This document shows, one piece after another, positions 10,694 through 61,353 of a stretch of DNA of 64,000 nucleotides. Under the pieces are notes generated by a model. It saw nothing but the letters and a program-made list of their open reading frames with translations, searched no databases and was not told the DNA's origin. Numbering within the stretch: the stretch's first letter is position 1; each line of letters begins with the position of its first letter. Position numbers and translations under genes: made by a program. The stretch covers positions 1 through 64,000 of the IMG/VR virus record IMGVR_UViG_3300017613_002264. One strand, 5' to 3'. The DNA comes from a virus.

Positions 10694-10737
10694 AGGAGAA
10701 CGTATAAACCAATAACTCACATAATTAGGAGAGGAGA

Positions 10738-39207: not shown

Positions 39208-39240
39208 GCTTTCATTATAACAGAATTTAATGTGAAATTG

Positions 39241-39657
39241 TTAATTAATTTTTTTGATGTATCCATTTAATTCGCTGAACACTTTCCTCACTTTTAATCT
39301 ACTACCCCACTTCTTACGAAAGAATTTCTTTATGAAATATGTATGGTCGTTTTTCCTTCTTCGTATAAGCCCAGTTTTAACGGATATACAGGCATTTACG
39401 AAATCCACAGGCGAATTGAGTATTGTCGAAATCACTTCTTTTGCTTCGTCTGAGAGTTTGTTATAAGTGTCATTTTTAATGACCGCTTCTTCGGGATTTA
39501 CTACATCGTCAGATATAATATCGTAGTCGTCTAGAATTTCTACTCCTCCCTCCTTTATTATCATCCAAGCGGAGAAAAGGTCACTATCGTCTAAATCCCT
39601 TTTTGCCCTTTGTCTTCTTAACTTTACCATCTTACGGGATCTTTTTAATTTTCTCAT
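39241..39657 (-). CDS. hypothetical protein
   Basis: 138-aa ORF with no named motif. Confidence 0.4.
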   Translation of the reverse strand: MRKLKRSRKMVKLRRQRAKRDLDDSDLFSAWMIIKEGGVEILDDYDIISDDVVNPEEAVIKNDTYNKLSDEAKEVISTILNSPVDFVNACISVKTGLIRRRKNDHTYFIKKFFRKKWGSRLKVRKVFSELNGYIKKIN

Positions 39658-39658
39658 G

Positions 39659-40168
39659 TCATGACGCCCTCCTTAAACGCTTAGGTTTTTTAAGGGACGT
39701 TCTACTAATTACTCTTTTTGGTTTTACGGATTTACTTATTTTTTTCAACTTCTTTGTAGCGGGTTTTCTCGTTAACTTCTTCGTTTTCTTTTTCCTCGTC
39801 AAAGCCTTTGTAGTCGGGGCCTTGGCGAAATGTTCTTCGGAATAACGAATTACTCTATCAATATGAAAATGTTGTCGGTCGCAACTACTACATTTTAATT
39901 TTTTAAATGTTTCCATCATGCCACTTGAACGTCTATTCTCGCACTCATTGAGTGTTATCCAATACTCACACTCATCGCACCAGAACCATTTGGCAGGGCG
40001 GAACTTCTTGCAACCTTTGTCTCTACTATCGACCCATTTGGCTTTAGGTCTACAATACCGTAATACTTTTTTAGGGTCTCGGATCTTTGCTTTTTTATGA
40101 CCGACACAATACCGACAAAATAATGTACTCGGTTTTACTTCAATTTTCCCTCTACTGATTTGTTTCAT
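39659..40168 (-). CDS. hypothetical Cys-rich protein with basic tail
   Basis: 169 aa with several CxxC pairs and a K/R-rich C-terminus. First gene downstream of hairpin copy 1. Confidence 0.45.
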   Translation of the reverse strand: MKQISRGKIEVKPSTLFCRYCVGHKKAKIRDPKKVLRYCRPKAKWVDSRDKGCKKFRPAKWFWCDECEYWITLNECENRRSSGMMETFKKLKCSSCDRQHFHIDRVIRYSEEHFAKAPTTKALTRKKKTKKLTRKPATKKLKKISKSVKPKRVISRTSLKKPKRLRRAS

Positions 40169-40221
40169 GTTTCCTCCTCGGTCTAAATTGTTAATATAAA
40201 ACTACTACATAAGTATAATCT

Positions 40222-40264
40222 CCAATGAGTACTACGAATGATTACTCACTCGTAGTACCGATGA
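40222..40264 (-). repeat. intergenic hairpin element, copy 1
   Basis: + strand: CCAATGA GTACTACGA atgattactcac TCGTAGTAC CGATGA. Lies 3 nt downstream of the stop at 40268. Confidence 0.9.
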
Positions 40265-40267
40265 TAA

Positions 40268-40510
40268 TTATACCTCAACTACTCGGCCCTGATGATCATC
40301 ACCATAAAACCCTCGAATAACTTCACGGTAGCAAATGTCTATCATCCGTTCAGCTTCTTCCTTTGTCTCATACTCATAAGGTTTTTCGTCTTTACCATTG
40401 GGCTTAATACTCACCCACTCATTGTTCGTGTTAGGTGTCTTCAACTGCATTTGCCATGCCATATAATACCTCCTTACATCCTTATGATATTGATTTCCGC
40501 CATTCCCCAC
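40268..40510 (-). CDS. hypothetical protein
   Basis: 80-aa ORF. The stop is followed 3 nt later by hairpin copy 1. Confidence 0.45.
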   Translation of the reverse strand: MGNGGNQYHKDVRRYYMAWQMQLKTPNTNNEWVSIKPNGKDEKPYEYETKEEAERMIDICYREVIRGFYGDDHQGRVVEV

Positions 40511-40698
40511 TTCTCGGGAACTCCCATTCCTTCAGGAACCGGCTCAATGCATTCCATTCCTACATTGCCACAAACAGTACAAATACAATAAATATCGCCC
40601 CAGTGATTTGTTCCTGTTTCTATTTCATTTCGACAATACTCATTTTTACATCTATAGGGCTTGATTGAGTATTTGCCTGTGACTGGTTTACTCGCCAT
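40474..40698 (-). CDS. hypothetical Cys-rich protein
   Basis: I prefer the ATG at 40698 (MASKPV..), which has GGGAGGTGA upstream, over the track start at 40782. Contains CKNEYC...CICTVC. Confidence 0.4.
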   Translation of the reverse strand: MASKPVTGKYSIKPYRCKNEYCRNEIETGTNHWGDIYCICTVCGNVGMECIEPVPEGMGVPEKWGMAEINIIRM

Positions 40699-41029
40699 CT
40701 TCGTCACCTCCCTGTATACTTTTAATTTTAGGGATAATACAATCCGACGTGTGTTCAGGATTCGCTTCTGTCCATTGACCACAATACCAACATTTATCTG
40801 CGATCAATGAGAAGTTCAAAACCTTATCGAGAATGTCTTCTACTTCGCCAAAGCCTTTCATTTTCAACATCCGATAGGCCTTGTTCGCAAAGTCGAAAAA
40901 CTCCCATTCCGTTTTACTCAGAAAGTTTTGACCATAACGATTAATTTGAAAAGTGTAATAGTCACTGTCATGGGCGACCGCCTTAATAAAACTAAATGGG
41001 TCTTCTACTTGTCGTGCTCTTCTAAACAT
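40688..41029 (-). CDS. hypothetical protein
   Basis: 113-aa ORF with AAGGAGGACAACATG start context downstream of hairpin copy 2. Confidence 0.45.
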   Translation of the reverse strand: MFRRARQVEDPFSFIKAVAHDSDYYTFQINRYGQNFLSKTEWEFFDFANKAYRMLKMKGFGEVEDILDKVLNFSLIADKCWYCGQWTEANPEHTSDCIIPKIKSIQGGDEDGE

Positions 41030-41076
41030 GTTGTCCTCCTTGGTTTAAGTTAACTACTTTACTACTCGGTAAGCCT

Positions 41077-41119
41077 CCAATGAGTACTACGAATGATTAC
41101 TCACTCGTAGTACCGATGA
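41077..41119 (-). repeat. intergenic hairpin element, copy 2
   Basis: Core identical to copy 1. Lies 4 nt downstream of the stop at 41124. Confidence 0.9.
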
Positions 41120-41123
41120 GGGT

Positions 41124-41366
41124 TTACTTCCATGCTTTAGGGATCATCAAGTCTTCCGCCATGTGCATGAACTTTGTTCCTTGTGCGTTCATGAGTATTC
41201 GGCCTTTTGGATTTACTACTTTGTGCGGGCCATAAGCACAACCGACCGAAACATGTTCATCTGTCAGGTATCGGCCTTGTAGAAATACTACATCGCCTTC
41301 TTCTACTTTTTTCCATTTGAGATGTTTGAATCCTTTTACTTTAATCTTCTCACCCATAATACTCAT
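41124..41366 (-). CDS. hypothetical protein
   Basis: 80-aa ORF. The stop is followed 4 nt later by hairpin copy 2. Confidence 0.45.
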   Translation of the reverse strand: MSIMGEKIKVKGFKHLKWKKVEEGDVVFLQGRYLTDEHVSVGCAYGPHKVVNPKGRILMNAQGTKFMHMAEDLMIPKAWK

Positions 41367-41988: not shown

Positions 41989-42035
41989 TTTGTCCTCCTT
42001 GGTTGTGGTTGTTATTGTACTACTTGGTTAAGCCT

Positions 42036-42078
42036 CCAATGAGTACTGCAGACGATTACTCATCTGCAGTACCGATGA
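42036..42078 (-). repeat. intergenic hairpin element, copy 3 (compensated stem)
   Basis: CCAATGA GTACTGCAGA cgattactca TCTGCAGTAC CGATGA. Both arms are changed together. Lies 4 nt downstream of the stop at 42083. Confidence 0.9.
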
Positions 42079-42082
42079 GGGT

Positions 42083-44740
42083 TTAACTCAGTACCGCCTT
42101 GGCGTTCTTCTTAATTGTTTTCGCTATTGAAGGAGTCAGCACCTTGCAAAGATCCTTAAGTTTGGCCTTCGCTATAATACCGATTGTTGTGAATCCCTTA
42201 TTATAAAGAGCAATTGCTCTTTTCCCGCCGACCATTTTGATTTTGGTCAAAGGAACAATTTCCTCGGAAACGCCATACTTAAATCTCAATGGCAATGTCT
42301 CCCAGATTTCACTTTCCCACAAAGCGTATTGAGTATCGATCAATTTGAGTGCTTGATTTATTCGTTGGATATCCCATATCAATTGACGTTGGAGACCCTT
42401 CAAAACATCAGGCACTTTCTCTTTTCCAGTGAGTGAGTAATGTAAAGCAATTGCTCCGCGCACTGAATTAATACTCGGGCGAATATCGAAGTCATTTGTC
42501 ATTGTACTCACAAAGTCACTGACCTCATTATATATTTGTTTTTGTTCGTATGGCAAGGCGTTCATGGGAACGTCGCCAACTGCCCAAGCGAGTAAAGCAT
42601 CATTCGTTTTGTCTACGTTAAAAACTTTATCGAAGTTTTTATACCACGCATAGACATCTGAGGGATGGAAGTAAAGCCAAGCACAGACCCGGCCTAGGCC
42701 GGTCGGGCTTATACGAAGACCATCGCCTTCGATCATTTCCATCTCACTGTATGAATTGAGTAGATGCTCACCTTGTTCTTTACTCATTGAGTTTTCCCCG
42801 GCCTGTAACGATGCCAGACTTCTGCCGTACCATTGGAGAAGTGAAAGGCTATCTTGAATTGTCTTTGTCTCAATTTCGGCAATGACATGGAACGGCATAA
42901 AATTATCTAGCACTGATAATACCGGCCTTGGGTTTGCAAACTTGTCTCGCCATGTAGATGTCTCATATGGCGGGATGAGAAGATAAACAAAACCTTCTTC
43001 GTCAATACCATAACGGCCCGCACGTCCGGCCATTTGTATGATATCAAGTTCGTCTACTTCGTTAATACCACGATGTATTCCTACTATGATAACGTTTCTA
43101 GCAGGAAGGTTTCTTCCCCATGCCAAAGTAGAAGTACTCACAAGAATTCTGATACCATTTTCTCGATCAGAAAACTTTCCTTCTACTTCCAACCTATCGG
43201 CAAGTTCAAGGTCGGCAGAATGAAAGTGAGCATTTTCACCTTCTTCCTGCAACCGCTTGACAAGACGACGGCCGGAACCTTTGTCATGTACGAAGATAAG
43301 GAACTTCTCTTTTGGTTTACTCATTGCAATTGCTATCGATGAATTTATTTTAACTGCCTGAGTTGCCCAGTAATCTTCCTGGCCACTTCCATAATACGCC
43401 GGAGTATACTCAACAAAATTATAATTGAGTTCAACCGGCCGCCATGTAGAAAAGACTACTCGTGTAGCTTTACCGTTCAACTGTTCGAGCCATGTTGCCA
43501 ACTCATTACAGTTGGGCATTGTAGCAGACAAGAAAAGTATTCGCGCCTTTTTATTAATAGAGGTAAATCTCATAATACCGGTCTCAACGGCATGACCTCG
43601 ATCAGTAGTGAGTATATGACTTTCGTCAACTACTACAAGCCCGGTTTGTTTGAGCCAGTAGTTTTTCTCAGACTTCATACGTCGAGTCCTTGAGTCGCAC
43701 ATTTCAGAAGTCATAACAATAATATGAGCATTTGAAAGTTCCTTCATTCGCTTTTCAGATAAAGTATAATCACCAGTGAGTATACTTATATTGTAATCAG
43801 CAAACCGAATCTTCCAATCCTCATATTTTTCCTGAGTCAAGGCCTTGAGTGGAGACAAGTAAATTACTCGCTTACCTTTACTCAAAGTCGCATCCATCAA
43901 TAGCTCCGCACATACAGTTTTACCGGCAGAAGTATTTGCTCCGATTATAAGATTGCCGTCCTCATTTGCATAAGGTAGTACCTCAGACTGAACCGGGTTG
44001 AATTTAGGAAATGAGTATTTGAATGGTTTGTACTTTTTGGTACTAACCAGTTTAATATCATTTGATTCATTTACTACCGGCTCATTGATTATATCCCTCA
44101 TTTCTTCGATGGATCTTCTTTCTTCTTCTTCAGTGAGTATTTCTTCTTCGGCTTCAGTGAGTATTTCTTCTTCGGCCGATCTATCAACCCACTCATCTTT
44201 AAAATAAGGATCATGTTTAAGTACCGTTGCTTCAAAAGTATTACGTCCCTTGGGATTCTTCTCGCCCAATACCCACGCCAACTGTTTATCAGAAAGAGTA
44301 TTACGTTCTTCTACTTGTTCAAGTAGAGAAGTTGCAAACTCAGACCAGTTAACAGCATCATGAGAAAGAATCGCCTTAACGTATGGAATATCAATGTCTA
44401 TAATTTCCAGAATATGGGCTTGATTATAGAACTCATCAATACGAGACTTGAGACGTTCGCCAATTGAAGTGGCTCCTTCTACTCGGAGTATCTTCTTGCC
44501 TTTACCAATAGGTCTATTGTTTACCTTATCCCAAAATACTACTCGGATAGCATCACTGCCAATCCGCCGGGTTACACCGGTTCTAATGTCGATAGTTGAG
44601 TAAACGCGAACGTCTACTTTATCGGAATTACTCGGTGTTTGATAAACAACTTCCTTGCAGTTAGGAACTTCTACTACATAAAAATTACGCGGCAGATGGT
44701 TCTCGAACTGCTCCTGTGTTAGTGTTACGAAGTTACTCAT
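42083..44740 (-). CDS. Ski2/Hel308-like superfamily-2 helicase with unassigned ~230-aa N-terminal extension
   Basis: GANTSAGKT (I), VVDESHIL (II), LSATMPN (III), TSTLAWGRNLPA (V) and MAGRAGRYG (VI). Confidence 0.8.
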   Translation of the reverse strand: MSNFVTLTQEQFENHLPRNFYVVEVPNCKEVVYQTPSNSDKVDVRVYSTIDIRTGVTRRIGSDAIRVVFWDKVNNRPIGKGKKILRVEGATSIGERLKSRIDEFYNQAHILEIIDIDIPYVKAILSHDAVNWSEFATSLLEQVEERNTLSDKQLAWVLGEKNPKGRNTFEATVLKHDPYFKDEWVDRSAEEEILTEAEEEILTEEEERRSIEEMRDIINEPVVNESNDIKLVSTKKYKPFKYSFPKFNPVQSEVLPYANEDGNLIIGANTSAGKTVCAELLMDATLSKGKRVIYLSPLKALTQEKYEDWKIRFADYNISILTGDYTLSEKRMKELSNAHIIVMTSEMCDSRTRRMKSEKNYWLKQTGLVVVDESHILTTDRGHAVETGIMRFTSINKKARILFLSATMPNCNELATWLEQLNGKATRVVFSTWRPVELNYNFVEYTPAYYGSGQEDYWATQAVKINSSIAIAMSKPKEKFLIFVHDKGSGRRLVKRLQEEGENAHFHSADLELADRLEVEGKFSDRENGIRILVSTSTLAWGRNLPARNVIIVGIHRGINEVDELDIIQMAGRAGRYGIDEEGFVYLLIPPYETSTWRDKFANPRPVLSVLDNFMPFHVIAEIETKTIQDSLSLLQWYGRSLASLQAGENSMSKEQGEHLLNSYSEMEMIEGDGLRISPTGLGRVCAWLYFHPSDVYAWYKNFDKVFNVDKTNDALLAWAVGDVPMNALPYEQKQIYNEVSDFVSTMTNDFDIRPSINSVRGAIALHYSLTGKEKVPDVLKGLQRQLIWDIQRINQALKLIDTQYALWESEIWETLPLRFKYGVSEEIVPLTKIKMVGGKRAIALYNKGFTTIGIIAKAKLKDLCKVLTPSIAKTIKKNAKAVLS
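44129..44176 (-). repeat. perfect 24-bp tandem duplication inside the Ski2-like helicase gene
   Basis: TTCAGTGAGTATTTCTTCTTCGGC twice (44129-44152 and 44153-44176). Encodes AEEEILTE twice. Confidence 0.9.
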
Positions 44741-44807
44741 TTTGTCCTCCTTGTTGTTGTTTTAATTAAACTTCCTCCCAATTATAACGCCTTTCACAAT
44801 TGAATCT

Positions 44808-44850
44808 CCAATGAGTACTACGAGCAATTACTCACTCGTAGTACCGATGA
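44808..44850 (-). repeat. intergenic hairpin element, copy 4
   Basis: CCAATGA GTACTACGA gcaattactcac TCGTAGTAC CGATGA. Lies 8 nt downstream of the stop at 44859. Confidence 0.9.
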
Positions 44851-44858
44851 TGATTCAA

Positions 44859-45248
44859 CTACTCAATATCATCTGTGCTGTGAAAAGATACTCGGTTCCA
44901 CTTCCGAGTAGTCTTCTTCGCCATGCTTTCAAACACGGCATCGCCCAACTCAGAACGGGCCTTGGTATTACTCACTGAAGCAAGCAGACCAAATTTCTTT
45001 GGCCCGACTTTCTTCTTCAGTTTCGCAGGGGAAAGAGTAAAAACATCTACGTCCTCAATTACTACGCATGATTTATTATACCCTTTGATAAACCCCTTTT
45101 CTGTTGCTTCAGCGTGGGTTCTCAAATCAGTTTTGATTTCGTCCAGTCTGGCAGTGAGGTCTTTAATATGGCCGGCGAGTTCCTTGCCTTCCGTAACTAA
45201 TTCTCTCACGCCCCGAATTCGTTTGAGTAATCTTTTTTTCTTAGGCAT
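44859..45248 (-). CDS. hypothetical protein
   Basis: 129-aa ORF whose start overlaps the end of the upstream GGCT gene and which lies just upstream of hairpin copy 4. No named motif. Confidence 0.45.
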   Translation of the reverse strand: MPKKKRLLKRIRGVRELVTEGKELAGHIKDLTARLDEIKTDLRTHAEATEKGFIKGYNKSCVVIEDVDVFTLSPAKLKKKVGPKKFGLLASVSNTKARSELGDAVFESMAKKTTRKWNRVSFHSTDDIE

Positions 45249-45654
45249 TGTTTTGTCTCCTTGTTTCTTTGTTCCATTCCTCTACTACTACAGCATTTTC
45301 AGGAATGGTGAAGTTAAAAACATACGTCCATGCTTTTGTCTCATCTACTACTATCTGGATTCGGTGATAAAAACTACCTTTCAAATCTTCCGGATTGTAT
45401 CCTTCGAGCCTGTCGCACTTTCTCAATGTCTCATCGATATCACTCACTTTCATGAGTTCTCCGATTACTCGATCTTTGCCTTTGGTCAATACCATTGCAG
45501 GGAACGGCCCGAGGTCGAAAAGTCTCGCGCCGAAGAAAATGCTTCTGGTAATTGTCTCAGTCAAGTTTTTCAAAAGGTACTCATAATTTGAAAATCCTTT
45601 TTTGAGCGTGCCATAGACAAAGATGTAGCCTGATTTTTTCTCCTCGTTGTTCAT
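45241..45654 (-). CDS. gamma-glutamylcyclotransferase (GGCT/AIG2-like)
   Basis: YIFVYGTLKKG, GPFPAMV, VIGEL and CDRLEGY. Confidence 0.8.
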   Translation of the reverse strand: MNNEEKKSGYIFVYGTLKKGFSNYEYLLKNLTETITRSIFFGARLFDLGPFPAMVLTKGKDRVIGELMKVSDIDETLRKCDRLEGYNPEDLKGSFYHRIQIVVDETKAWTYVFNFTIPENAVVVEEWNKETRRQNNA

Positions 45655-45700
45655 GTTGTCCTCCTAGTTGTGGTTAATAATGTACTACATGGTTAAATCT

Positions 45701-45742
45701 CCAATGAGTACTACGAGTAATTACTACTCGTAGTACCGATGA
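45701..45742 (-). repeat. intergenic hairpin element, copy 5 (extended stem)
   Basis: CCAATGA GTACTACGAGTA attac TACTCGTAGTAC CGATGA, a 12-bp stem. Lies 4 nt downstream of the stop at 45747. Confidence 0.9.
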
Positions 45743-45746
45743 TGAT

Positions 45747-46301
45747 TTAACTATTTAGAATCGCGTCAATGTCTTCTTGGCGCGGTCTATGGCGAATCAA
45801 CGTATGCTTTGAATGATCCAACTTCGCGAACTGTTTTGGAAATACTCTTTTGAAAAGATTGATTGACCATCTACAGGTCTGTTTCTCATTCTTTCCTAGA
45901 GCATGGCCAAATTCATGTAGAAAAGTAATTATGGAAAGATTACCACTCATAATTATTTCGTGCAACGCCGGGACATAACAACTCGATCCTGACTGGTTCA
46001 TTTTTGTCTCACGCACTGTCGCGTCAAGATCAATACCGCCACCGCTAATACTCGGTACTTCTATATCATACAGTGGTGAAAGTTCCTGAGCGAGTACAGT
46101 GAGACCTTCTAACCTTTGCCGATTTGTTTTACTACCCCATAGTTTTTTATCTCGCCATCGTTTGAGTGCGGGAATTACTCCCAACCGATACTTAATACCA
46201 TCATCGATTGATTCTTCAACCGTTTCAGGGTACGCGTTATCATTACTCATTGATGGAATGATAGATCTAACTATAGCGTCATTGTTTTCTGAATTACTCA
46301 T
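45747..46301 (-). CDS. putative zinc metallopeptidase (HExxH)
   Basis: FLHEFGHALG. I prefer the ATG at 46301, which has AGGAGGACAAAAAATG context, over the track start at 46364. Confidence 0.45.
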   Translation of the reverse strand: MSNSENNDAIVRSIIPSMSNDNAYPETVEESIDDGIKYRLGVIPALKRWRDKKLWGSKTNRQRLEGLTVLAQELSPLYDIEVPSISGGGIDLDATVRETKMNQSGSSCYVPALHEIIMSGNLSIITFLHEFGHALGKNEKQTCRWSINLFKRVFPKQFAKLDHSKHTLIRHRPRQEDIDAILNS

Positions 46302-46350
46302 TTTTTGTCCTCCTATTGGTTGTTGATTTGTTTTGCATACGTTTGATCCT

Positions 46351-46388
46351 CCAATGAGCCCCATGAGTAATACTCATGAGGCCGATGA
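46351..46388 (-). repeat. intergenic hairpin element, copy 6 (different stem, same flanks)
   Basis: CCAATGA GCCCCATGAGTA a TACTCATGAGGC CGATGA. The stem sequence is replaced but still self-complementary, with one mismatch. Confidence 0.8.
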
Positions 46389-46399
46389 TAAATCAAACT

Positions 46400-47917
46400 T
46401 TACTCATTGTACGACCGGCGTCTCCGCCGGGGCAGTGGGTTTCTTCTACTCACTCGATCAGGAACGTTAATACCAACAAGTTCCTCATCGGGTTCTTCTT
46501 CGCCGATTCCTAATTCATAATCGTCATCGTCATCGTCATCGTCATCGTTAGAGGTATTGTGTTCCTGTTGTTCCTCGGCACTTTCATTGAAAGCATAATC
46601 GCCAAGGTTGTCAGGATTTCTACGTCCCTCAAACAATTGAGCACGAGAAAGAAAAAACCGAACGGCTTCGAGTTGTTCATTACTGCAACTACTCATTTCA
46701 ACTTCATGTAGTATTTCTTCTTCAGGTTCTTCTACTACTTCTGGAACTGACCGAGTAATTGGTATTTCTTCAATACCAATAGGGAGAAGTCTGAACTTCT
46801 TACGATTCTTAATAATATTAAAACCGTATCCCCATTTGTTGTTTTTAAGGTTGGTCAATTGGCCTGAGACAAACTTCTTTTGAGCCCCAGTTCTCAATGA
46901 TCCAAACTCCTCATTGAGGGCAGTTACAATTTTCTCTTTTGTAACCCAATCACTCAAAAGCATCCTTACAATCGCACCCGTTTTGGCGTGGACTTTAGGA
47001 GGCTTTTGTTTCTTAGCCTCAGGATGAATAAACTTCTGAGCAAACCTTGACCTAGCAACATACGAATGAGCGGACCTTATAAAGTCTTGTTCGTAATTTG
47101 GCTCATCCGAATCAGAACTACTCGGCGTTGCCCGTTGAAGGGTTCGCCGAACCTGAATAGAACTACTCTTTAAGGCATCAATAAATTCCTTAAAGGTTTT
47201 GGTATTACTGGAAACGACACCACCGCAAAGGGCAATGTCAAGCCAGCGTTGAGTAATCAGGATCCAAGTACTCACTTTAGGCCACTCAACTGTTCCCGAA
47301 TGCAATCGCCATTCGAGCGTATTTCTCATTGAGATGGATCTAAAATTGAGTGAAGATCGCCTATCGCCAATATTGTTTCCGTACCAATAAACTGCTTGAC
47401 TTTGGCACTCGGGAGGGTTTCCCCATTGTCTACAGTAAGTATTACTCAAACGACTATTTGGTAATGCGTAATAGAAAAACTTCTCATCTACTCGCCAAGC
47501 ATTTGCTACTTTTACCAATTGCTCATCTGTGCAACCGCCTACATAATGGTGAACATGAAAGCCACAAGTTCTACTCGCAGTAGCAAATGGAGAACCAAAT
47601 CCATCGTCTAAAGCCTTGCAGACTACTTGTACTGCTTTCATTCCTTCCGTGCCTTTCAATACCGGTGAGACAATCTCCATGTTATATGGAAACTGACTAC
47701 TCATGTTCTCATTGAGTGCAATCACTGACCCGTCAGGCTTGATATGCCAAGTTGACTCATTCGAGGCATCTGTATCATGACCATAGGAGCCGTCGACTAC
47801 TACTTGATGATTAATCATGTTGTCTGAGAAGAATTGTCTAATCCTCTCAGCCATACGATGATCGCCTACGGATGAGTGACACTCAATCTCAATACCGAAA
47901 GTTCGTTCTTCGTTCAT
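46400..47917 (-). CDS. amidoligase (Amidoligase_2 / glutamine-synthetase-like COOH-NH2 ligase family)
   Basis: FGIEIECH, W.IKPDGS, MEIVSPVL.G and CGFHVHHYVGG, as I recall for the family. A long C-terminal extension ends in an acidic-then-basic tail. Confidence 0.7.
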   Translation of the reverse strand: MNEERTFGIEIECHSSVGDHRMAERIRQFFSDNMINHQVVVDGSYGHDTDASNESTWHIKPDGSVIALNENMSSQFPYNMEIVSPVLKGTEGMKAVQVVCKALDDGFGSPFATASRTCGFHVHHYVGGCTDEQLVKVANAWRVDEKFFYYALPNSRLSNTYCRQWGNPPECQSQAVYWYGNNIGDRRSSLNFRSISMRNTLEWRLHSGTVEWPKVSTWILITQRWLDIALCGGVVSSNTKTFKEFIDALKSSSIQVRRTLQRATPSSSDSDEPNYEQDFIRSAHSYVARSRFAQKFIHPEAKKQKPPKVHAKTGAIVRMLLSDWVTKEKIVTALNEEFGSLRTGAQKKFVSGQLTNLKNNKWGYGFNIIKNRKKFRLLPIGIEEIPITRSVPEVVEEPEEEILHEVEMSSCSNEQLEAVRFFLSRAQLFEGRRNPDNLGDYAFNESAEEQQEHNTSNDDDDDDDDDYELGIGEEEPDEELVGINVPDRVSRRNPLPRRRRRSYNE

Positions 47918-47967
47918 TTTGTCCTCCTTGTTGTTATTAAATATTTTCTCCAGTTTAAATCAAATCT

Positions 47968-48010
47968 CCAATGAGTACTACGAGCGATTACTCACTCGTA
48001 GTACCGATGA
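47968..48010 (-). repeat. intergenic hairpin element, copy 7
   Basis: CCAATGA GTACTACGA gcgattactcac TCGTAGTAC CGATGA. Lies 9 nt downstream of the stop at 48020. Confidence 0.9.
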
Positions 48011-48019
48011 TCATTTGAT

Positions 48020-48901
48020 CTACTCACCATGAACTACTCGTTTGGGATTGTTACCGATTGCCGTTGCCGGAGCAGGAACTCCAGTAACGTCAGGGTAATG
48101 CTCAAACTCGTATGTCTCTTCTGCATCATAGTCAACGGGTTCAACTACTTCAATTACCGGATCTTCTTCGTACCGGCCGAGGTTTTTGAACTCGAGTGTA
48201 TTAAGGTCAACGGTGTACATATGTAAAGGCTTAGTGAAAAAAGACTTTACTTTTTTGACCTTAATGTTGGTAAGACCGGCCGCGTTGGTGTATTGGATTG
48301 TATCTTGAACAAGTTGCTTAGTAGAACAAAATACTCGCACGCCCAAGGTCTTTCTCAAATCCATAATGCACATAGGCCGATGAAGGTCACGCGCAAAGAG
48401 TAATTCTCTATTAGCGAAGTTCATTGCCACCATTGAGTAGCATTCAACTTCTGAAAGAATTTCTTTTACGAATCCCTTCTTCTCAACACATCTAAAAAAT
48501 GCTTCCGTATCCGACTCACCCTCAATTTTCGATTTTACTCGATGAGTAGTTGCCAGTTCAAAAGCCTCAGTCATGGTGCCGTTGTGGACTATCGCCCACT
48601 CATCGCCGACATATGGCTGAGTATTTAATGTATTGACCGTACCTACACTCGCGTTCCGGTTGTGGCCGACGAATACTTGACATTGTTTATTTACTACACT
48701 GTCTCGGTAATACTCACTTCTCTCATAGAATTCTGATGCTTTCACCGCCGACTTCTCAGTGATCAATTCTGAATCACTTGTGGCGAAAAAACCAGTTCCA
48801 TCAATTCCCCTTGCTTCGGAAACGACGGCCAGGATTCTCATGAATTTTGCGAGTACATCCGCATTCTTCGGCTTTCCTACATAACCATAGATACCGCACA
48901 T
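48020..48901 (-). CDS. class II (Ntn) glutamine amidotransferase
   Basis: MCGIYGY (N-terminal nucleophile Cys), VGHNRNASVG, IVHNGT and ESDTEAFF. Confidence 0.8.
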   Translation of the reverse strand: MCGIYGYVGKPKNADVLAKFMRILAVVSEARGIDGTGFFATSDSELITEKSAVKASEFYERSEYYRDSVVNKQCQVFVGHNRNASVGTVNTLNTQPYVGDEWAIVHNGTMTEAFELATTHRVKSKIEGESDTEAFFRCVEKKGFVKEILSEVECYSMVAMNFANRELLFARDLHRPMCIMDLRKTLGVRVFCSTKQLVQDTIQYTNAAGLTNIKVKKVKSFFTKPLHMYTVDLNTLEFKNLGRYEEDPVIEVVEPVDYDAEETYEFEHYPDVTGVPAPATAIGNNPKRVVHGE

Positions 48902-48969
48902 ATTGTCCTCCTTTTGCCGAGATAATACTCGGCGTTTATAAAATTAAACTACTACGTACATTCAAGCCT

Positions 48970-49012
48970 CCAATGAGTACTACGAACAACTACTCATTCG
49001 TAGTACCGATGA
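48970..49012 (-). repeat. intergenic hairpin element, copy 8
   Basis: CCAATGA GTACTACGA acaactactcat TCGTAGTAC CGATGA. Lies between IR arm 49026-49054 and the GATase gene. Confidence 0.9.
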
Positions 49013-49025
49013 TAACTTGAATTTG

Positions 49026-49054
49026 ATTAAACAATTTATTTCGAGGGCCGAGTA
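49026..49054. repeat. left arm of inverted repeat bracketing ORF 49060-49326
   Basis: ATTAAACAATTTATTTCGAGGGCCGAGTA. The first 18 nt are a perfect reverse complement of 49350-49367. There are 3 mismatches over 29 nt. Confidence 0.85.
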
Positions 49055-49326: not shown

Positions 49327-49338
49327 AGATTACTCCTT

Positions 49339-49367
49339 TACTCAGCCGCCGAAATAAATTGTTTAAT
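49339..49367. repeat. right arm of inverted repeat bracketing ORF 49060-49326
   Basis: TACTCAGCCGCCGAAATAAATTGTTTAAT. Two of the three mismatches become G-U pairs only in the minus-sense RNA. Confidence 0.85.
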
Positions 49368-50379
49368 AAATTATAGCAGGCAGTGAGTAGTTCACATTGA
49401 CTTTCCTAGGTCTTAATATGCCCAGTACTATGCAATCCAAACAACCCACTACCCATGCTATAACGGCCTATCCATGAATTACTCATTAGACAATACCAAC
49501 ACGTTTCGCCCTCTAGTATATTTTTATATTGAGACTACTGTATTGGCGGAAATTTAATGAGTAAAACACTTCTAGTACCACGGACTTTATAGGGCCGACT
49601 TTCGTCTTTTCCGCTACCGCGATTCTACTCACTGCGAATTTACTATAGCGGTCAATTTTTCATGCTCAATTTTTAGACATTACTATCATGACCATTGCAT
49701 TTCAATTCGGTACGCCTACAGTGTTTACTCGCCTGCCGTTCCCTAGAGATTTTGGAGGTGCGGGATTATGAACTAAACCACCTAAGGAGGAGGAGGGCGG
49801 TGGATTTATTTTGTCCTAACGGGTTATGGCATTTGATTACTCATTCAGTTGGATGAATTATGCCGTCGGGAGTATCATGTAGGATTTCGTTTTTGAATCG
49901 TGCAACCTTTGTATGTAGTATTTTTCCGCTGATGATCATTCCCTACATACCGAGTAGTAGTTGCCATATACTCGACGTGGCGAATTTTGTTTCATTAAAG
50001 TCTCGCTACCACGATTAATTTTTTATTGGGATATTTAAAACCCCTTCCGACATGGTATTGGATTTCCATTTCGCCTACATCAATTATTAATGTCTACATC
50101 AAAAGACGATGCATCCTATTGCTCAGCGGTTATCAAAATGAGTAGTACTCATTAAGGAATGTTTTCCATACCTAGAAAGCCACCATGTCAGGTGCGGATG
50201 TTTTGAACCGGCCAGCTCCAGAGGGGATTTTGAAAAAATGAGTAAAACAAAATACTCGCAAAAGCCCGTGGGCGGCGGCCCCAACCAAACAACCGAATAT
50301 GTAAAAGAACTCAAAATCAGTGCATTTGTAACATTTTCAGGGACTTAAGTCAACCCCTTTTTTTCATGGGGAAGCCTCC

Positions 50380-50401
50380 AGGCCCAGAGTTGGGCTTTTT
50401 T
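50380..50401 (+). terminator. weak intrinsic-terminator-like hairpin on the + strand inside the ORF-free region
   Basis: AGGCCCA gagt TGGGCTT followed by a T-run (tttttt). The stem is short. Confidence 0.3.
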
Positions 50402-50671
50402 CACTCCTAACACGTTGAATTTATTGCATAAAATAGGGGCAAAATAAATGCAAAAAAAATGAAAAAAAGTGCGTTTTTTACCTTTCTAAGAGCATGATTT
50501 CATTGGGAAAAATGGCGGGTGTAGGTAGGTGATTTTATTAGGGAAAAGGAGTACCACAGGGTAGGGAATTAGCGGAAAATGGGCAAAAAAGGGCGATTTT
50601 AGCGGCTCTACTCATTTTTCGCCCATTTCTGGCCATATATAGCGGAACTACTCATTCGTCAAATAATGGAA

Positions 50672-50881
50672 CTACTCATCAAAGTCTCTATCTATATCAT
50701 CTACATCGTAAATGCCCATCAATTTATCATACTCTTCTTGATGATTTGTTATGATATGATCCATCAAGACATTGTAGTTATCTTTTTTTCCGCCGTATGA
50801 TAAAGTTCTCACTCGAGGGCAACTCCATCCGCAGAATTTACAGACATAATTATATTTTGGATTACTCATACCGTAACCCAT
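50672..50881 (-). CDS. small Cys-containing protein
   Basis: 69 aa with CKFCGWSC. Confidence 0.4.
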   Translation of the reverse strand: MGYGMSNPKYNYVCKFCGWSCPRVRTLSYGGKKDNYNVLMDHIITNHQEEYDKLMGIYDVDDIDRDFDE

Positions 50882-51393
50882 CCCTCATATTCCGACCAAC
50901 ACTCAGGACAACATGAGTGTTCTACATCGAAAGTAGTCTTATGAACTTTGCAACTCCAAATAGTATTTTCTACATATTCAAATCTCTCTTCTTGAATTTT
51001 ATCGAAGTAGCACATGCCCCTCATCTCCCCGTCAGAAGCACCATTATATTCTTGATCATAATTGATCAAATCTCCGAGGCTGTAGAATATAGGAATATTC
51101 AATCTATTCGCCACTACTATTTCTTTCATCACGCCTTTACTCACTCCGATTTCATGAACCAACATATAGTCGGATACTTCCAACCACGCCATTGAGTAGT
51201 CGTAATAGTTGCCTACATTCAACTTCTCATTGCGTTGCAACATCAAAGAGAAATGATAATCCAACCACGGAACAAATGGAGCATATCCTTTGAGTAGTAC
51301 TCGAACTCCAACCCTCATTCCCCGTCTCATGTTATCAAGTACAGATATCACATTGTCTGCCGAATACGGTCCGGCCACGTATACTTTTCTCAT
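50866..51393 (-). CDS. nucleoside 2-deoxyribosyltransferase-like (DUF4406-type) protein with C-terminal Cys cluster
   Basis: MRKVYVAGPYSADN.. at the N-terminus. The C-terminus carries CKVH...CCPEC. Confidence 0.45.
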   Translation of the reverse strand: MRKVYVAGPYSADNVISVLDNMRRGMRVGVRVLLKGYAPFVPWLDYHFSLMLQRNEKLNVGNYYDYSMAWLEVSDYMLVHEIGVSKGVMKEIVVANRLNIPIFYSLGDLINYDQEYNGASDGEMRGMCYFDKIQEERFEYVENTIWSCKVHKTTFDVEHSCCPECWSEYEGWVTV

Positions 51394-51752: not shown

Positions 51753-51870
51753 TACTCATCCTCCTTTCATGAGTTTATTTAGCTTTCATAATATATGCCG
51801 AAAACCTATATTTCTGAGGTTTTCAAGAGTGCGATTTCATCAAGATCATATGGCGCATACTTTAATCTAC

Positions 51871-52041
51871 TCATAGTTCACATGATGTACTACTCATAAT
51901 ACCATTGCATACAACGCACTTAACTTCTAAATACATTGTATCTTCGCCATGAGGGATATCTAAAGGGTAATACTCAAGTACTATCGCTTCTTCAAACCCG
52001 CACTTATCGCAGTTAGTTACTATTCTATCTCCTCTTTTCAA
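51871..52041 (-). CDS. 56-aa Zn-ribbon ORF not in the supplied track (TTG start)
   Basis: Translated by hand: (M)KRGDRIVTNCDKCGFEEAIVLEYYPLDIPHGEDTMYLEVKCVVCNGIMSSTSCEL. AAGGAG lies 8 nt upstream of the TTG. Confidence 0.3.
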   Translation of the reverse strand: MKRGDRIVTNCDKCGFEEAIVLEYYPLDIPHGEDTMYLEVKCVVCNGIMSSTSCEL

Positions 52042-52045
52042 TTAC

Positions 52046-52201
52046 TCATCTCCTTAAGTTTATCTTATGACCACAATGAACACATATATATCCGAACTTC
52101 TTTTTTACCAAAGCCTTATCTTTAAGGCATTTACTACATTGACCTTCTTTACTCATCTCCATCTTCATCCTTTTCGTCAACTTCTCTTTTCTCTTTGCCA
52201 T
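52046..52201 (-). CDS. 51-aa Zn-ribbon ORF not in the supplied track
   Basis: Translated by hand: MAKRKEKLTKRMKMEMSKEGQCSKCLKDKALVKKKFGYICVHCGHKINLRR. AAAGGAGG lies 5 nt upstream. Confidence 0.4.
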   Translation of the reverse strand: MAKRKEKLTKRMKMEMSKEGQCSKCLKDKALVKKKFGYICVHCGHKINLRR

Positions 52202-52354
52202 AATACCTCCTTTGAATTAATAGATAACCACGCCTACCCTCAAGATCTTCTACAATGAATGCTAAACAAAATAGACAAGATTCTTGAGGATAGACGCAAC
52301 TACTGCCCGGTTAAGGGTCGTCTACATATTGTCCTCCTATTGTTATGAGTAATA

Positions 52355-52832: not shown

Positions 52833-53050
52833 GTCTACTCCTTTTTAATATAAAATAATTGGTTTACCCAATATTGCCTGATACTACTCGTTGCTACCTG
52901 TAGAACCCCATTCTATAAGGGTTTATAACCTGACTTGGTACTATTTTAATTGTAACATATTTTATCACCAAACTGATATTTAATTTTAACTTTATTAATT
53001 TAAAAAAGGATGGTATTATAAAGGTAATAAATAACAACTTTGAGGTACTG
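52833..53050. promoter_or_regulatory. AT-rich divergent intergenic region between the leftward and rightward gene blocks
   Basis: A 218-bp gap from which transcription must diverge, since the gene on each side reads away from it. There are several TATAAT-like hexamers, but I could not fix a unique -35/-10 pair. Confidence 0.4.
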
Positions 53051-58960: not shown

Positions 58961-59860
58961 ATGTCTCACCAAACAATAAAAATATTCGACCGTGATACAG
59001 AACCACAAGGCTTAAACATCGACATCGATGGTAATGTAGGAGTAGTACTTTATGATCAGTACGGAGACCCTTTGGTTACAGACGATGGCAAGGTATTAAC
59101 TAAAACATATCTCGCAGATCATTTTACCGATGAAGCAAGGGGAGTAAACGTAGACCGTGAGGGGCACGTAGGAGTTGCCACTCATGGGGATGATCGAAAT
59201 GGTGATTTAGTTCCTATCAGTGTTACTCCCGGCGGAAAGATAATAACAAAATCATCTCATGATGATGCTGTTGACTCTGGTGAGATATTTTTTTTAAAGG
59301 ATTTTACAAGGCCATCGGGTGCTGATACAGAACAAACTTTTACTATAACGATTCCCGCAAACCCTTATGGGTCATACTCGGAAGTCCATTTACATTGGGC
59401 TGTTCATGCTGAAGCCGAATTTGAAATGAGAACTTATTATGCCCCGACAATAAATGCTCCCGGGACATTACTCACTCCTCTCAATAGAAATGCAAACTAC
59501 CAAGGTCCCGGTGGTCCTGTTCCCATTTCTCAATGGAGGCGGGATGCTACATTTACAGACTATGGTGCTGAAACATATGCTGATGTCGTTGGTAATGGAA
59601 AGAGAAATGTAGCAGGACATAGTTTTCAGGGCGAATTTATACTCAATGCGAATTCCCTATGGAGTATGGTCTTTAAGAAAGTTGCGACGGGTACTCATTG
59701 GCTATCGTGGGAATTTAACTTCTCAGAAGATTTATATGGGGCGCAATCTTCAACAACTACAAGTACTACAACTACTGAACCTGGACCTGAGACTTACTCG
59801 GTGAGTAGTGATGGAGACGATGTAGTTCATGAAGGCGATTCAGTTATTCATACATTTTAA
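58961..59860 (+). CDS. virion-module protein, paralogue 1 (YYAPT...W.W...EDL domain), Thr-rich segment near C-terminus
   Basis: 299 aa. Its C-terminal ~130 aa align by eye with ORF 60592-61341. Contains SSTTTSTTTTEPGPE. Confidence 0.5.
   Translation: MSHQTIKIFDRDTEPQGLNIDIDGNVGVVLYDQYGDPLVTDDGKVLTKTYLADHFTDEARGVNVDREGHVGVATHGDDRNGDLVPISVTPGGKIITKSSHDDAVDSGEIFFLKDFTRPSGADTEQTFTITIPANPYGSYSEVHLHWAVHAEAEFEMRTYYAPTINAPGTLLTPLNRNANYQGPGGPVPISQWRRDATFTDYGAETYADVVGNGKRNVAGHSFQGEFILNANSLWSMVFKKVATGTHWLSWEFNFSEDLYGAQSSTTTSTTTTEPGPETYSVSSDGDDVVHEGDSVIHTF
59749..59778 (+). repeat. Thr/Ser-rich tract
   Basis: SSTTTSTTTT in ORF 58961-59860 (approximate bounds). Confidence 0.8.
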
Positions 59861-59873
59861 AAGGAGATGAGAA

Positions 59874-60578
59874 ATGGCTGAAAGAGAATTAAAAAACATT
59901 ATGAAATCTGGTGAACTGCTTGCGTCCCTTGTTGGCGGGAGTGTTAATGGATTGAAGGTCAGGGAGGGAGGGCAAATACAGCGAGTAGGGGATGCTACCA
60001 TCTGGGATGATCTTCGAGGAGATATGCTTGGGACCAGACTGCACGCTGGACAGGGAAAGGTTGATTATAATCTCACTGAGAATACAGTTACGTTTAACCC
60101 AGGTGGTTCATGGGGAAGAGAAGCAGATATAGTAGGCATGAATATTCAAACTCCTCACTCCATGAAGTTAGGTTCGTTGATACATCCTCATCTCCATTTC
60201 AAACAAGAGTCAAATACTGATTATGTTTTTGAATTGAGATATAGGATTCAGCAGAACGGCCAGGCTCCAGTAGTCCCATGGACCACAATCATTGCCACTA
60301 CTGTATATCCTGCCGTTGCAGATGTTGGTCTCTTATTTGATCCATCCAGTTTGCCAATTAATAATATACTCGAGTTTGGAGCCATCGCAGTACCCGGACT
60401 TTCCACCGCTGTCCAGTTCCAAATGATACGTTCTGATGGAATTGGCGGTGATATTGAGACTTACTTTTTCGATGTCCATGTTGAGAAAGATACAGAGGGT
60501 AGTGGGCGTGAGTATTTGAAATTCGACACAACCACTACAACCACTACGACTACTACCACGACCACAACTACTACCTAA
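59874..60578 (+). CDS. virion-module protein with 16-Thr C-terminal tail
   Basis: 234 aa ending ..LKFDTTTTTTTTTTTTTTTT-stop. AAGGAG RBS. Confidence 0.5.
   Translation: MAERELKNIMKSGELLASLVGGSVNGLKVREGGQIQRVGDATIWDDLRGDMLGTRLHAGQGKVDYNLTENTVTFNPGGSWGREADIVGMNIQTPHSMKLGSLIHPHLHFKQESNTDYVFELRYRIQQNGQAPVVPWTTIIATTVYPAVADVGLLFDPSSLPINNILEFGAIAVPGLSTAVQFQMIRSDGIGGDIETYFFDVHVEKDTEGSGREYLKFDTTTTTTTTTTTTTTTT
60528..60575 (+). repeat. 16-Thr C-terminal tail tract
   Basis: Tail of ORF 59874-60578. Confidence 0.95.
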
Positions 60579-60591
60579 GGAGAAATGAGTA

Positions 60592-61341: not shown

Positions 61342-61353
61342 GGAGATGAGAAA

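Follow-up and report, generated by a model that had tools for sequence, protein, structure and literature searches.

What is made, and what is unmade, by a phage gene cluster that sets a predicted amidoligase beside a class-II glutamine amidotransferase (GAT-II), a gamma-glutamyl cyclotransferase and a protein with an HExxH motif? We asked this of four adjoining genes that lie, all on the minus strand, in a 64,000-nucleotide (nt) stretch of the IMG/VR record IMGVR_UViG_3300017613_002264 (hereafter the window), which is a phage genome. The cluster is a known, unsolved kind of phage cassette in a variant form, with one ligase instead of three and with an additional zincin-like protein. Every part of it that can be assigned from sequence profiles and structural models points to gamma-glutamyl amide chemistry in the cytoplasm, and we tentatively favour a module that is expressed early, acts in the cytoplasm and both forms and removes gamma-glutamyl amide bonds, with a peptide or protein as the most likely substrate. 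What is new here is the coupling of the HExxH protein to the amidoligase, the alternation of the GAT-II and the cyclotransferase between loci, an explanation of the C-terminal extension of the ligase, and the characterisation of an RNA element that recurs between the genes.

Cassettes of this kind are widespread in phages, have been flagged since 2009, and are usually annotated as 'auxiliary metabolic' or 'cell-wall modification' genes without evidence. An association of amidoligase, GAT-II and gamma-glutamylcyclotransferase (GGCT) genes in phages was reportedly described by Iyer et al. in 2009. This attribution, also made in an earlier note on the same DNA, fits the passages of later papers that cite that work (PMC5498523, PMC10580990, PMC3890496). 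In phiEco32-, LUZ24- and RIO-1-like podoviruses the three genes are accompanied by a second ligase and an ATP-grasp protein (PMC5498523, PMC10580990, PMC3890496, PMC11318856). The window resembles this 'peptidoglycan modification cassette' (PMC5498523), as found in phiEco32, LUZ24, PaP3, tf, UFV-P2 and RIO-1, in that Amidoligase_2, class-II GAT and AIG2/GGCT genes are clustered and lie among early and DNA-metabolism genes (UFV-P2 gene table, PMC3890496), and in both cases the function is a prediction only. It differs in that no COOH-NH2_lig (PF14395) or ATP-grasp domain was found by Pfam in minus-strand open reading frames (ORFs) of at least 250 residues, in the addition of the HExxH gene, and in the winged-helix C-terminal extension of its ligase. 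No mention of an HExxH partner was found in published descriptions of the phage cassette. Our literature searches found no experimental test of the function of the module and, as the earlier note had stated, turned up no experimentally demonstrated substrate.

The four ORFs were all recovered on the minus strand with the coordinates previously proposed for them (Table 1), together with each of the motifs that had been quoted: YGTLKKG, GEL and LEGY in the cyclotransferase, GIEIECH, DGS, EIVSP and CGFHVHH in the amidoligase, and MCGIYGY, HNR and HNG in the GAT-II. The frame of the HExxH gene is open as far as 46364, and a AGGAGGACAAAAAATG ribosome-binding site puts its start at 46301; this start is correct as first called, since a strong AGGAGG site precedes that ATG and the same site is common to all genes of the block.

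The ligase matches Amidoligase_2 (PF12224) over residues 3-225 and profile positions 1-244 of 245, with a score of 86.5 bits (curated cut-off 22; E = 3.3e-24), and also matches PHROG 2443 (2.8e-24). The 505-residue ORF had been called Amidoligase_2-like from its motifs, and this assignment holds, with a Pfam score above the curated cut-off and no unrelated family in competition. Across 51 amidoligase homologues, residues E10, E12, D62, S64, E81, H121, H123, R186, N191, E202 and R204 are invariant. A profile search by sequence found no solved homologue of this subfamily. When an AlphaFold2 model (predicted local distance difference test, pLDDT, 83.5) was compared with known structures using Foldseek, the best matches were Dop (7oxv, E = 4.8e-4) and YbdK/GCS2 (1r8g, 9e-4), followed by glutamine synthetases, gamma-glutamylmethylamide synthetase (GmaS) and plant glutamate-cysteine ligase (GCL), with probabilities of 0.9-1.0 but low template modelling (TM) scores of 0.2-0.3. 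The predicted fold is that of the glutamine synthetase/GCL/PafA-Dop carboxylate-amine ligases. Each of these structural neighbours, from Dop to GCL, is a carboxylate-amine ligase whose reaction involves the gamma-carboxylate of glutamate.

Beyond the catalytic domain the ligase carries a C-terminal extension that is common to about 10 homologues, in which a variable linker, a Lys-rich stretch, a winged helix, and a strand followed by a long helix succeed one another. The winged-helix region was modelled as three helices and a beta-hairpin, the wing, with pLDDT values above 90, and the domain is kept in 10 homologues. Pfam gave no direct match to DUF3489 (PF11994) in the extension. Many shorter Amidoligase_2 proteins consist of the ligase domain, then DUF3489, then a similar terminal helix, and hhalign aligned the subfamily of the window to these DUF3489-bearing amidoligases with an E-value of 6e-40. 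Because this profile-profile alignment spans the winged helix, the extension appears to be a divergent form of a common architecture. Within the following helix, which the DUF3489-type enzymes also carry, A418, R425 and F429 are invariant in the subfamily alignment, and the region is modelled as helical. The poly-Asp and Arg-rich tail at the very end is present only in this phage and is lacking from the homologues aligned. The extension, as judged from alignments and models, is thus a DUF3489-like winged helix, a conserved helix and a predicted disordered tail, and is not a novelty in itself.

Two of the remaining genes encode enzymes whose families act on gamma-glutamyl groups. The GAT-II matches Pfam GATase_6 with 46.7 bits (cut-off 27; 4.1e-12), as well as GATase_4 and GATase_7. 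Aligned to PurF (1ao0), it keeps the Cys1 nucleophile directly after the initiator Met (MCGIYGY), and its GHNR, HNG and SDTE motifs correspond to GHVR, HNG and SDTE of 1ao0, which supply the Arg, the Asn-Gly oxyanion hole and the Asp; its description as an N-terminal nucleophile (Ntn) GATase is upheld by these pocket residues and by the score above the cut-off. No fused synthase domain was found, the protein consisting of the Ntn domain (residues 1-240) and an acidic tail, and weak NCBIfam matches include EgtC. Since only the Ntn domain matches, the protein is more like the stand-alone amidohydrolases of the EgtC, YafJ and DUG3 type than a true amidotransferase. The stand-alone GAT-II enzymes that have been characterised, EgtC and DUG3 among them, act as gamma-glutamyl amidohydrolases. 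By its sequence the GAT-II of the window is a predicted stand-alone Ntn amidohydrolase with a pocket for glutamine or a gamma-glutamyl group whose alpha-amino and alpha-carboxyl groups are free. The cyclotransferase, noted before as GGCT/AIG2-like, scores 73.2 bits against the gamma-glutamylamine cyclotransferase profile GGACT (PF06094; curated cut-off 22.8; 3.6e-20) and matches PHROG 2520 at 2.5e-16. It has the YGxL pocket motif (YGTLKKG) and the conserved catalytic Glu in VIGEL, and its N-terminal motif aligns to 1vkb.

The fourth protein is the least familiar. No Pfam, PHROG, NCBIfam or PADLOC model matched the HExxH ORF at threshold, and none of the 92 homologues (0/92) recovered with a word-indexed search contains a Pfam domain. 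An exhaustive profile search (E at most 1e-3) enlarged the family to 1,311 representatives at 50% identity, in which H129, E130, H133 and E139 (HExxHxxGxxE) are invariant, followed by WSxNLF and a C-terminal His. The AlphaFold2 model (pLDDT 88.9) had no significant Foldseek neighbour in the PDB, where the best was IrrE/PprI at E = 0.36, and one significant neighbour in BFVD, an uncharacterised phage protein. A search of PDB sequences with the family profile returned noise only, and the sub-threshold Pfam similarities (DUF6782, M78, M10 and Reprolysin_3) are all to zincins. On this sequence and model evidence the protein is zincin-like and lies outside all curated families. The earlier designation 'HExxH peptidase' therefore stands for the motif, but finds no curated family behind it, and peptidase activity is a guess at the level of the fold. 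IrrE/ImmA (M78) and the SprT-like phage zincins are likewise small HExxH proteins, which phages often encode, and are the best, non-significant, structural or profile neighbours. They differ from the HExxHxxGxxE motif found here, which has metzincin-like spacing but Glu as its third residue and is followed by the invariant WSxNLF, and no helix-turn-helix partner or repressor context is present.

Are these four families linked beyond this one genome? In the relatives L003, the closest, and L004 (56-67% identity) the order GAT-II, amidoligase, HExxH, GGACT, orf129 and helicase is the same, and in L008/9 (about 40%) and L010 (about 31%) all four families are kept in different orders. The linkage that the earlier note had proposed is thus conserved in three divergent lineages despite shuffling. 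To sample more widely we picked loci by the HExxH gene alone, 51 in total, and scored their neighbours with hidden Markov models built for this purpose. Amidoligase_2 lay within 10 kb in 33 of the 51: in 17 of 25 viral loci from IMG/VR, 13 of them within about 2 kb, and in 16 of 26 loci from genomes, mostly metagenome-assembled genomes (MAGs) of Planctomycetota, 12 of them directly adjacent and 2 more within about 1 kb. The amidoligase and the HExxH protein are thus a recurrent gene pair, and a large HExxH family without a curated model emerges as a regular partner of the amidoligase, a fourth player coupled to the ligase in about two-thirds of the sampled loci.

Among the loci with the pair, 12 have only a GAT, 12 have only a GGACT, and about 10 have neither within reach; both occur together only in the clade of the window. 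The existence of GAT-only and GGACT-only modules suggests that the two enzymes are interchangeable and mostly alternative third partners. Clustering of the neighbours in the 33 loci revealed no further conserved family beyond HExxH, amidoligase, GAT and GGACT. Two apparent extra families near the module (F3 and F5) were overlapping alternate-frame ORFs in high-GC loci and were discarded as artefacts. A lambda-like phage (L013) carries the pair between its terminase and portal genes, L012 has it in a chromosomal or prophage context, and the cultured Geobacillus phage GR1 has the amidoligase (40057-40812), the GGCT (40873-41289) and an HExxH homologue (51813-52253), the last 11 kb from the other two. 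No HExxH-amidoligase fusion was found among the longest members of the HExxH family.

Several observations on the HExxH family stand beside this linkage. In phage contigs of 75-100 kb (L005/L006, 6514-9855; L007, 6547-12685), HExxH homologues about 43% identical do not adjoin an amidoligase and instead neighbour IF-2B/MtnA-like, Sacchrp_dh_C and AdoMet-decarboxylase genes, with tRNA-synthetase-like genes near; by gene content, this context suggests polyamine metabolism or methionine salvage. In P0280, a polyvalent-type protein of 1,320 residues, an HExxH domain (residues 347-491) lies beside DUF5661, HAD-like and RelA_SpoT domains, a predicted domain set which hints that the HExxH domain may be capable of serving as a conflict effector on its own. 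The nearest genomic HExxH-amidoligase pairs (L040-L062) are mostly from Planctomycetota MAGs (Phycisphaerae, Tepidisphaerales), with a few from Verrucomicrobiota and Acidobacteriota, a taxonomic spread that is biased because the scan used exact peptide patterns.

How might such a set of proteins work together? The ligase would couple the gamma-carboxylate of free glutamate, at the expense of ATP, to a primary amine, for instance on a Lys side chain or at an N-terminus, of a target that it would recognise through its winged-helix and C-terminal region; the winged helix and the conserved C-terminal helix suggest recognition of a macromolecule. The GAT-II, by hydrolysis, and GGACT, by cyclisation to 5-oxoproline, would remove or recycle the gamma-glutamyl mark; we assign them this role because neither can act unless the alpha-amino and alpha-carboxyl groups of the gamma-glutamyl moiety are free, and their interchangeability fits a shared part in gamma-glutamyl removal. 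A peptidase partner would imply a peptide bond in the substrate, and the zincin may cut the substrate in its peptide portion, whether to lay the acceptor open or to break the product down. The four proteins are predicted to be soluble and to lack signal peptides or transmembrane segments (maximum Kyte-Doolittle value, KD19, at most 1.35, against 3.29 for a control ORF). Located 4-8 kb inside the first leftward transcription unit, the cluster is preceded by a promoter-like repeat with an extended -10 element (about 52.95 kb) and followed by the next copy (about 39.2 kb), and its purpose may be host takeover or conflict early in infection.

Several points weigh against this reading. Neighbour clustering found no conserved tag or substrate gene with the module, and the known substrates of GGACT-type enzymes are free gamma-glutamyl amines and not protein-bound ones. 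The zincin assignment consists of a motif and weak similarities. About 35% of the HExxH loci have no amidoligase, and the HExxH protein may have an independent role, since it is found without the ligase and once in a polyvalent protein. The winged helix could instead bind DNA or RNA. Finally, the literature favours a cell-wall target (PMC5498523, PMC10580990, PMC3890496, PMC11318856).

In that published alternative, the gamma-D-Glu stem peptide of a peptidoglycan precursor or muropeptide would be rebuilt in the cytoplasm by the ligase and the trimming enzymes, changing the cell surface and blocking superinfection. The citing passages of later papers state the prediction of a cell-wall modification against superinfection with reference to Iyer et al. 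2009 (PMC5498523, PMC10580990, PMC3890496, PMC11318856), and those in three of them attribute it to Iyer et al. 2009 and Hardies et al. 2013 (PMC5498523, PMC10580990, PMC11318856). Stem peptides would offer both gamma-glutamyl and peptide bonds, the latter something for the zincin to cut, and in several phages the module occupies accessory, moron-like positions. We nevertheless consider a cell-wall target unlikely for the cluster described here. The pockets of GAT-II and GGACT need a free alpha-amino group on an L-glutamyl residue, whereas the D-isoglutamate of the stem is N-acylated; none of the four proteins has a signal peptide or transmembrane segment, the genes linked to the module include neither a murein ligase nor a lysis gene, and literature searches found no experimental support. 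The window also has one ligase where the canonical cassette has three (COOH-NH2_lig, Amidoligase_2 and ATP-grasp; PMC3890496).

A small-molecule pathway is, in our judgement, similarly improbable. Here the ligase would either glutamylate a small amine (a polyamine or a derivative of an amino acid) or make a glutathione-like peptide, and the glutamyl group would be taken off again by GAT-II or GGACT; gamma-glutamyl would serve as a transient handle, or gamma-glutamyl metabolites would be turned over; a role in auxiliary nitrogen or amino-acid metabolism would be included. The structural neighbours of the ligase do include small-amine ligases (GmaS, 9qur; 1-naphthylamine glutamine synthetase, 8wwu) as well as GCL (2gwc), and some HExxH homologues adjoin the AdoMet decarboxylase, Sacchrp_dh_C and IF-2B/MtnA-like genes mentioned above. 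There is also precedent in the pairing of a ligase that adds gamma-glutamyl with a dedicated enzyme that removes it, in EgtA/EgtC (ergothioneine), PuuA/PuuD (putrescine) and BtrJ/BtrG (butirosin). EgtC, to which the GAT-II has a weak match, is a stand-alone GAT-II that is paired with a GCS2-type ligase, EgtA; BtrG is a cyclotransferase of the AIG2/GGCT family, and PuuA, like GmaS, is a glutamine synthetase-like ligase. This comparison is drawn from established knowledge and weak matches and is not one of orthology. The handle pathways differ from the module in having intermediate tailoring enzymes and in having neither a zincin partner nor a winged helix, and we know of none that is phage-borne. 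No further tailoring enzyme is conserved with the module, and it is not obvious what a tight metallopeptidase-like partner and a ligase with a winged helix would do in small-amine chemistry. An eLife paper has proposed an auxiliary function in nitrogen metabolism, as speculation without biochemistry (PMC10945688).

A bolder form of protein modification, in which the amidoligase-HExxH pair, together with GAT-II, GGACT or both, would act like pupylation without a tag, seems to us quite unlikely when all of its parts are taken jointly. In phages and other mobile elements, a ligase targeted by its winged helix would gamma-glutamylate lysines of DNA-associated or defence-related host proteins early in infection, and the mark would then be edited or recycled with the help of a dedicated zincin and of two erasers that differ in their chemistry; if true, this would be a new class of phage-encoded protein modification. 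The resemblance to PafA and Dop, the Pup ligase and the depupylase/deamidase of actinobacteria, lies in the best structural matches of the ligase model, which are Dop structures (7oxv, 9cku and 7oyh), and in the chemistry, in which a gamma-glutamyl-lysine isopeptide is made and removed and a ligase is paired with amide-cleaving enzymes. The similarity is at the level of the fold only (TM about 0.25, 10% identity), and the erasers here have unrelated folds (Ntn GAT-II, GGACT and zincin) and are not a paralogue of the ligase. A Pup-like tag is excluded because no conserved tag gene accompanies the module in the 33 loci whose neighbours were clustered.

Hypermodification of DNA bases, which the earlier note had raised as a speculation and in which the winged helix would target the ligase to DNA for a modified base to be amidated or glutamylated and the adduct tailored by the other proteins, is very improbable: the ligase does have a winged helix, a nucleoside-deoxyribosyltransferase-like gene lies 2 kb upstream and some viral contigs combine amidoligase and amidotransferase domains with genes for thymidine hypermodification (Lee et al. 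2021, PMC8989533), but no dUMP/dCMP hydroxymethylase, 5-HMUDK, aGPT-Pplase, TET/JBP or DpdA gene was found in the 14.5-53 kb block, the deoxyribosyltransferase-like gene accompanies the module in no relative but the closest, L003, the 51 HExxH-anchored loci have no other conserved partner, and the module is also found in Planctomycetota loci that look chromosomal and, in lambda-like phages, between terminase and portal.

The reading as a cytoplasmic gamma-glutamyl module narrows the chemistry of the cassette, in that the assignable components all lead to gamma-glutamyl amide bonds and all are predicted to be cytoplasmic. The coupling of ligase and zincin together with the interchangeable removers defines a concrete minimal system to reconstitute, namely the ligase, the zincin and one remover, and genetics is possible because the cultured phage GR1 has the ligase, the GGCT and the zincin.

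Table 1. Coordinates of the cluster genes, ligase domains, neighbouring genes and RNA elements in the window.
Feature	Position (nt)	Strand	Details
GAT-II, class-II (Ntn) glutamine-amidotransferase-like amidohydrolase	48020-48901	minus	293 residues; without synthase domain; acidic C-terminal tail
Amidoligase_2 enzyme	46400-47917	minus	505 residues; catalytic domain residues 1-230 (nt 47228-47917)
DUF3489-like winged-helix domain of amidoligase	46784-46984	minus	residues 312-378; AlphaFold2, hhalign
Conserved strand and long helix, amidoligase C-terminus	46595-46717	minus	residues 401-441; motif A-x-x-W/F-x-x-R-x-x-x-F
Predicted disordered poly-Asp and Arg-rich tail of amidoligase	46400-46582	minus	residues 446-505; pLDDT below 50
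Zincin-like HExxH protein	45747-46301	minus	184 residues; HEFGHALGKNE (HExxHxxGxxE) at nt 45885-45917
GGACT/AIG2-like gamma-glutamyl(amine) cyclotransferase	45241-45654	minus	137 residues
orf129	44859-45248	minus	basic, 129 residues; 8-nt overlap with GGACT stop codon
Hel308-like DEAD/Helicase_C/HHH_5 helicase	42083-44740	minus	885 residues; Pfam
DUF7768/nucleoside 2-deoxyribosyltransferase-like gene	50866-51393	minus	Cys-rich C-terminus; kept only in L003
RNA element copy 1, upstream of GAT-II	48953-49028	minus	covariance model R1, 86.1 bits
RNA element copy 2, GAT-II/amidoligase gap	47951-48026	minus	R1, 87.9 bits; minimum free energy -32.2 kcal/mol, z -7.25
RNA element copy 3, amidoligase/HExxH gap	46334-46404	minus	R1, 71.2 bits; minimum free energy -30.7 kcal/mol, z -6.67; upper stem fully compensated
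RNA element copy 4, HExxH/GGACT gap	45684-45758	minus	R1, 85.7 bits
RNA element copy 5, orf129/helicase gap	44791-44866	minus	R1, 89.1 bits
RNA element copy 6, after helicase	42019-42094	minus	R1, 82.9 bits; upper stem compensated
RNA element copy 7	41060-41135	minus	R1, 81.0 bits
RNA element copy 8	40205-40280	minus	R1, 87.3 bits

The genes of the cluster are separated by a recurrent hairpin. The pattern CATCGG-N24-40-CATTGGAG occurs 8 times against 0.00 expected, always on the coding strand and always between genes, and a covariance model found exactly eight sense copies in the window, with 71-89 bits against 22-36 bits for the antisense strand. Each element is about 63-76 nt long and consists, from outside to inside, of a lower stem that varies from copy to copy, the invariant boxes UCAUCGG and CUCAUUGGAG, an upper stem and a small loop; the boxes form three pairs around a 2x3 internal loop and are identical in 14 copies from two diverged phages. 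RNAalifold placed 26 pairs in the hairpin. In the 14 copies, 96.4% of the alignment cells at these positions are paired, compared with 31-46% in slid controls, and 16 of the 26 pairs show double changes. The model also found six copies at the same intergenic positions in L003 and more in L186 and L188, and L008 and L010 have the same architecture with a different sequence (z -5.6 to -7.3). The elements start at, or a few bases from, a stop codon and are followed by an AT-rich spacer of 45-60 nt and the Shine-Dalgarno site of the next gene. Rfam offered nothing credible for the hairpins, and among the matches listed in a metagenome scan with the over-permissive pattern ATCGG-N24-40-CTCATTGGAG there were single chance ones and none that the covariance model confirmed.

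The earlier note had described each gene as set off by a hairpin. The hairpins are real and beyond chance, but the boundary between GGACT and orf129, where the two genes overlap, has none. They are also no punctuation specific to the four-gene cluster, an idea ruled out by copies that extend over other genes, in relatives too; since further copies enclose the helicase and several small ORFs as far as 40205, the hairpins belong to the operon, and the eight copies extend over 9 kb of this early operon.

By analogy with the early region of T7, we read the hairpins as RNase III-type processing and 3'-end-stabilising sites that would uncouple the cistrons. The elements have the anatomy of such sites, with at least 20 base pairs of double-stranded RNA (26 pairs), an asymmetric 2x3 internal loop and an intercistronic position directly after stop codons. 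The T7 sites R0.3 to R1.3 are similarly hairpins of about two turns with an asymmetric internal loop that lie after the upstream stop codon between early cistrons, in T7 on a transcript of the host RNA polymerase, and form a family of related sequences. The elements differ from them in showing no sequence similarity and no Rfam family, and in an internal loop that is invariant in 14 copies of two diverged phages and may have a dedicated reader. That invariant sequence tells against our interpretation, as it could equally mark a phage-encoded RNA-binding protein.

It seems rather doubtful to us that the hairpins are instead factor-independent terminators or attenuators, sites for translational or antitermination regulators, or a selfish repeat resembling a miniature inverted-repeat transposable element. 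The boxes stay invariant in the 14 copies while both stems covary, a pattern of sequence-specific recognition by a protein, whereas host RNase III needs no strict sequence, and the copies are repeated and dispersed. For a terminator, however, there is no U-tract after the stem and not one copy was called terminator-like, and a mobile repeat would have to be reconciled with copies that are strictly intergenic and strand-specific, sit at orthologous positions in diverged relatives and have outer stems that covary copy by copy. A helix of about 26 base pairs split by an asymmetric internal loop between early cistrons is, moreover, the anatomy of a T7 RNase III site.

A second structured RNA may lie 0.7 kb upstream of the GAT-II gene. 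Within an ORF-free gap (49330-50670), a non-coding block on the minus strand of the window (49580-50045) is conserved in L003 (4125-4596) and L186 (5314-5790). The three phage lineages are 70-72% identical over the block, a level that matches the flanking genes, and all three are without a called ORF there. From these three sequences RNAalifold derived a structure of 87 pairs in 16 helices; on the same alignment, 94% of cells are paired against 30-52% in slid controls, with 28 compensatory pairs against 0-4, and G-U pairs favour the minus strand. The block has no Rfam match even at E up to 10, ARAGORN found no tRNA or tmRNA in it, and an exact 25-mer taken from it retrieved nothing from IMG/VR. 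We present it as a candidate novel structured phage RNA of about 470 nt; with the intergenic element, it offers a new testable example of RNA-level organisation in a phage early operon.

Downstream of the cluster, orf129 is probably translationally coupled to GGACT. It has no family match in Pfam, PHROG, NCBIfam or PADLOC, and its homologues adjoin the module only in L003 (8e-38) and L008 (3e-15); it is a clade-specific neighbour and not a core member of the module. The helicase that follows is a syntenic neighbour of the module in L003, L008, L010 and L188, the phage clade of the window. Both belong to an early and replication block that runs on the minus strand from about 53 kb down to 14.5 kb and encodes two helicases, a DnaG-like Zn-ribbon protein, a DnaB-like protein, an N6/N4 methyltransferase, a sliding-clamp-like protein, a clamp-loader-like ATPase, a single-stranded DNA-binding-like protein, a RecA-like protein, a 5'-3' exonuclease and an SbcC/D-like pair. 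Its family-A DNA polymerase (26877-29495, minus) unites an N-terminus of the uracil-DNA glycosylase superfamily and a 3'-5' exonuclease domain in a single ORF of 872 residues. Structural genes lie on the plus strand and flank the early block on both sides. A blastn search of the cluster against 50,697 phage records gave no match and thus no close isolated phage, and the polymerase and the amidoligase are at most 30% identical to those of any isolated phage. A scan of IMG/VR with back-translated amidoligase peptides confirmed nothing, and PADLOC found no link of the module to known defence systems.

The promoter-like repeat noted above is 43 nt long and occurs four times (25530-25572, 32808-32850, 39211-39253 and 52946-52988). 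Read on the minus strand it resembles an extended -10 promoter (…TGGTATAAT…), and at each copy another leftward transcription unit probably begins. L003 and L008 have similar repeats on either side of their early region.

The leftward block closes with neighbouring glycosyltransferase-2-like and Sulfotransfer_3 genes (14557-15775, minus). Genomes resembling OM43 phages have been listed with the same 'AMG' (auxiliary metabolic gene) set of metallophosphoesterase, amidoligase, GATase and sulfotransferase (PMC10580990). The plus-strand structural genes contain long Thr-rich tracts of ACN-codon repeats (regions 6890-8450, 10640-10830, 59750-61800 and 61800-64000), and a run of repeats of about 150 nt near the 3' end of the window encodes WGxNxxGQLG-type motifs that are RCC1- or beta-propeller-like. 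In base composition, CCWGG is strongly depleted across the whole window (14 observed against about 62 expected). The pentamer GAGTA (217 occurrences) and its complement TACTC (316) are the most over-represented, at about 3-4.6 times the expectation from base composition and with z of 5-6 when judged by a third-order Markov model; both orientations are found throughout the window, in the context YGAGTA[AGT][TA], and GAGTAAT is present in hairpin loops.

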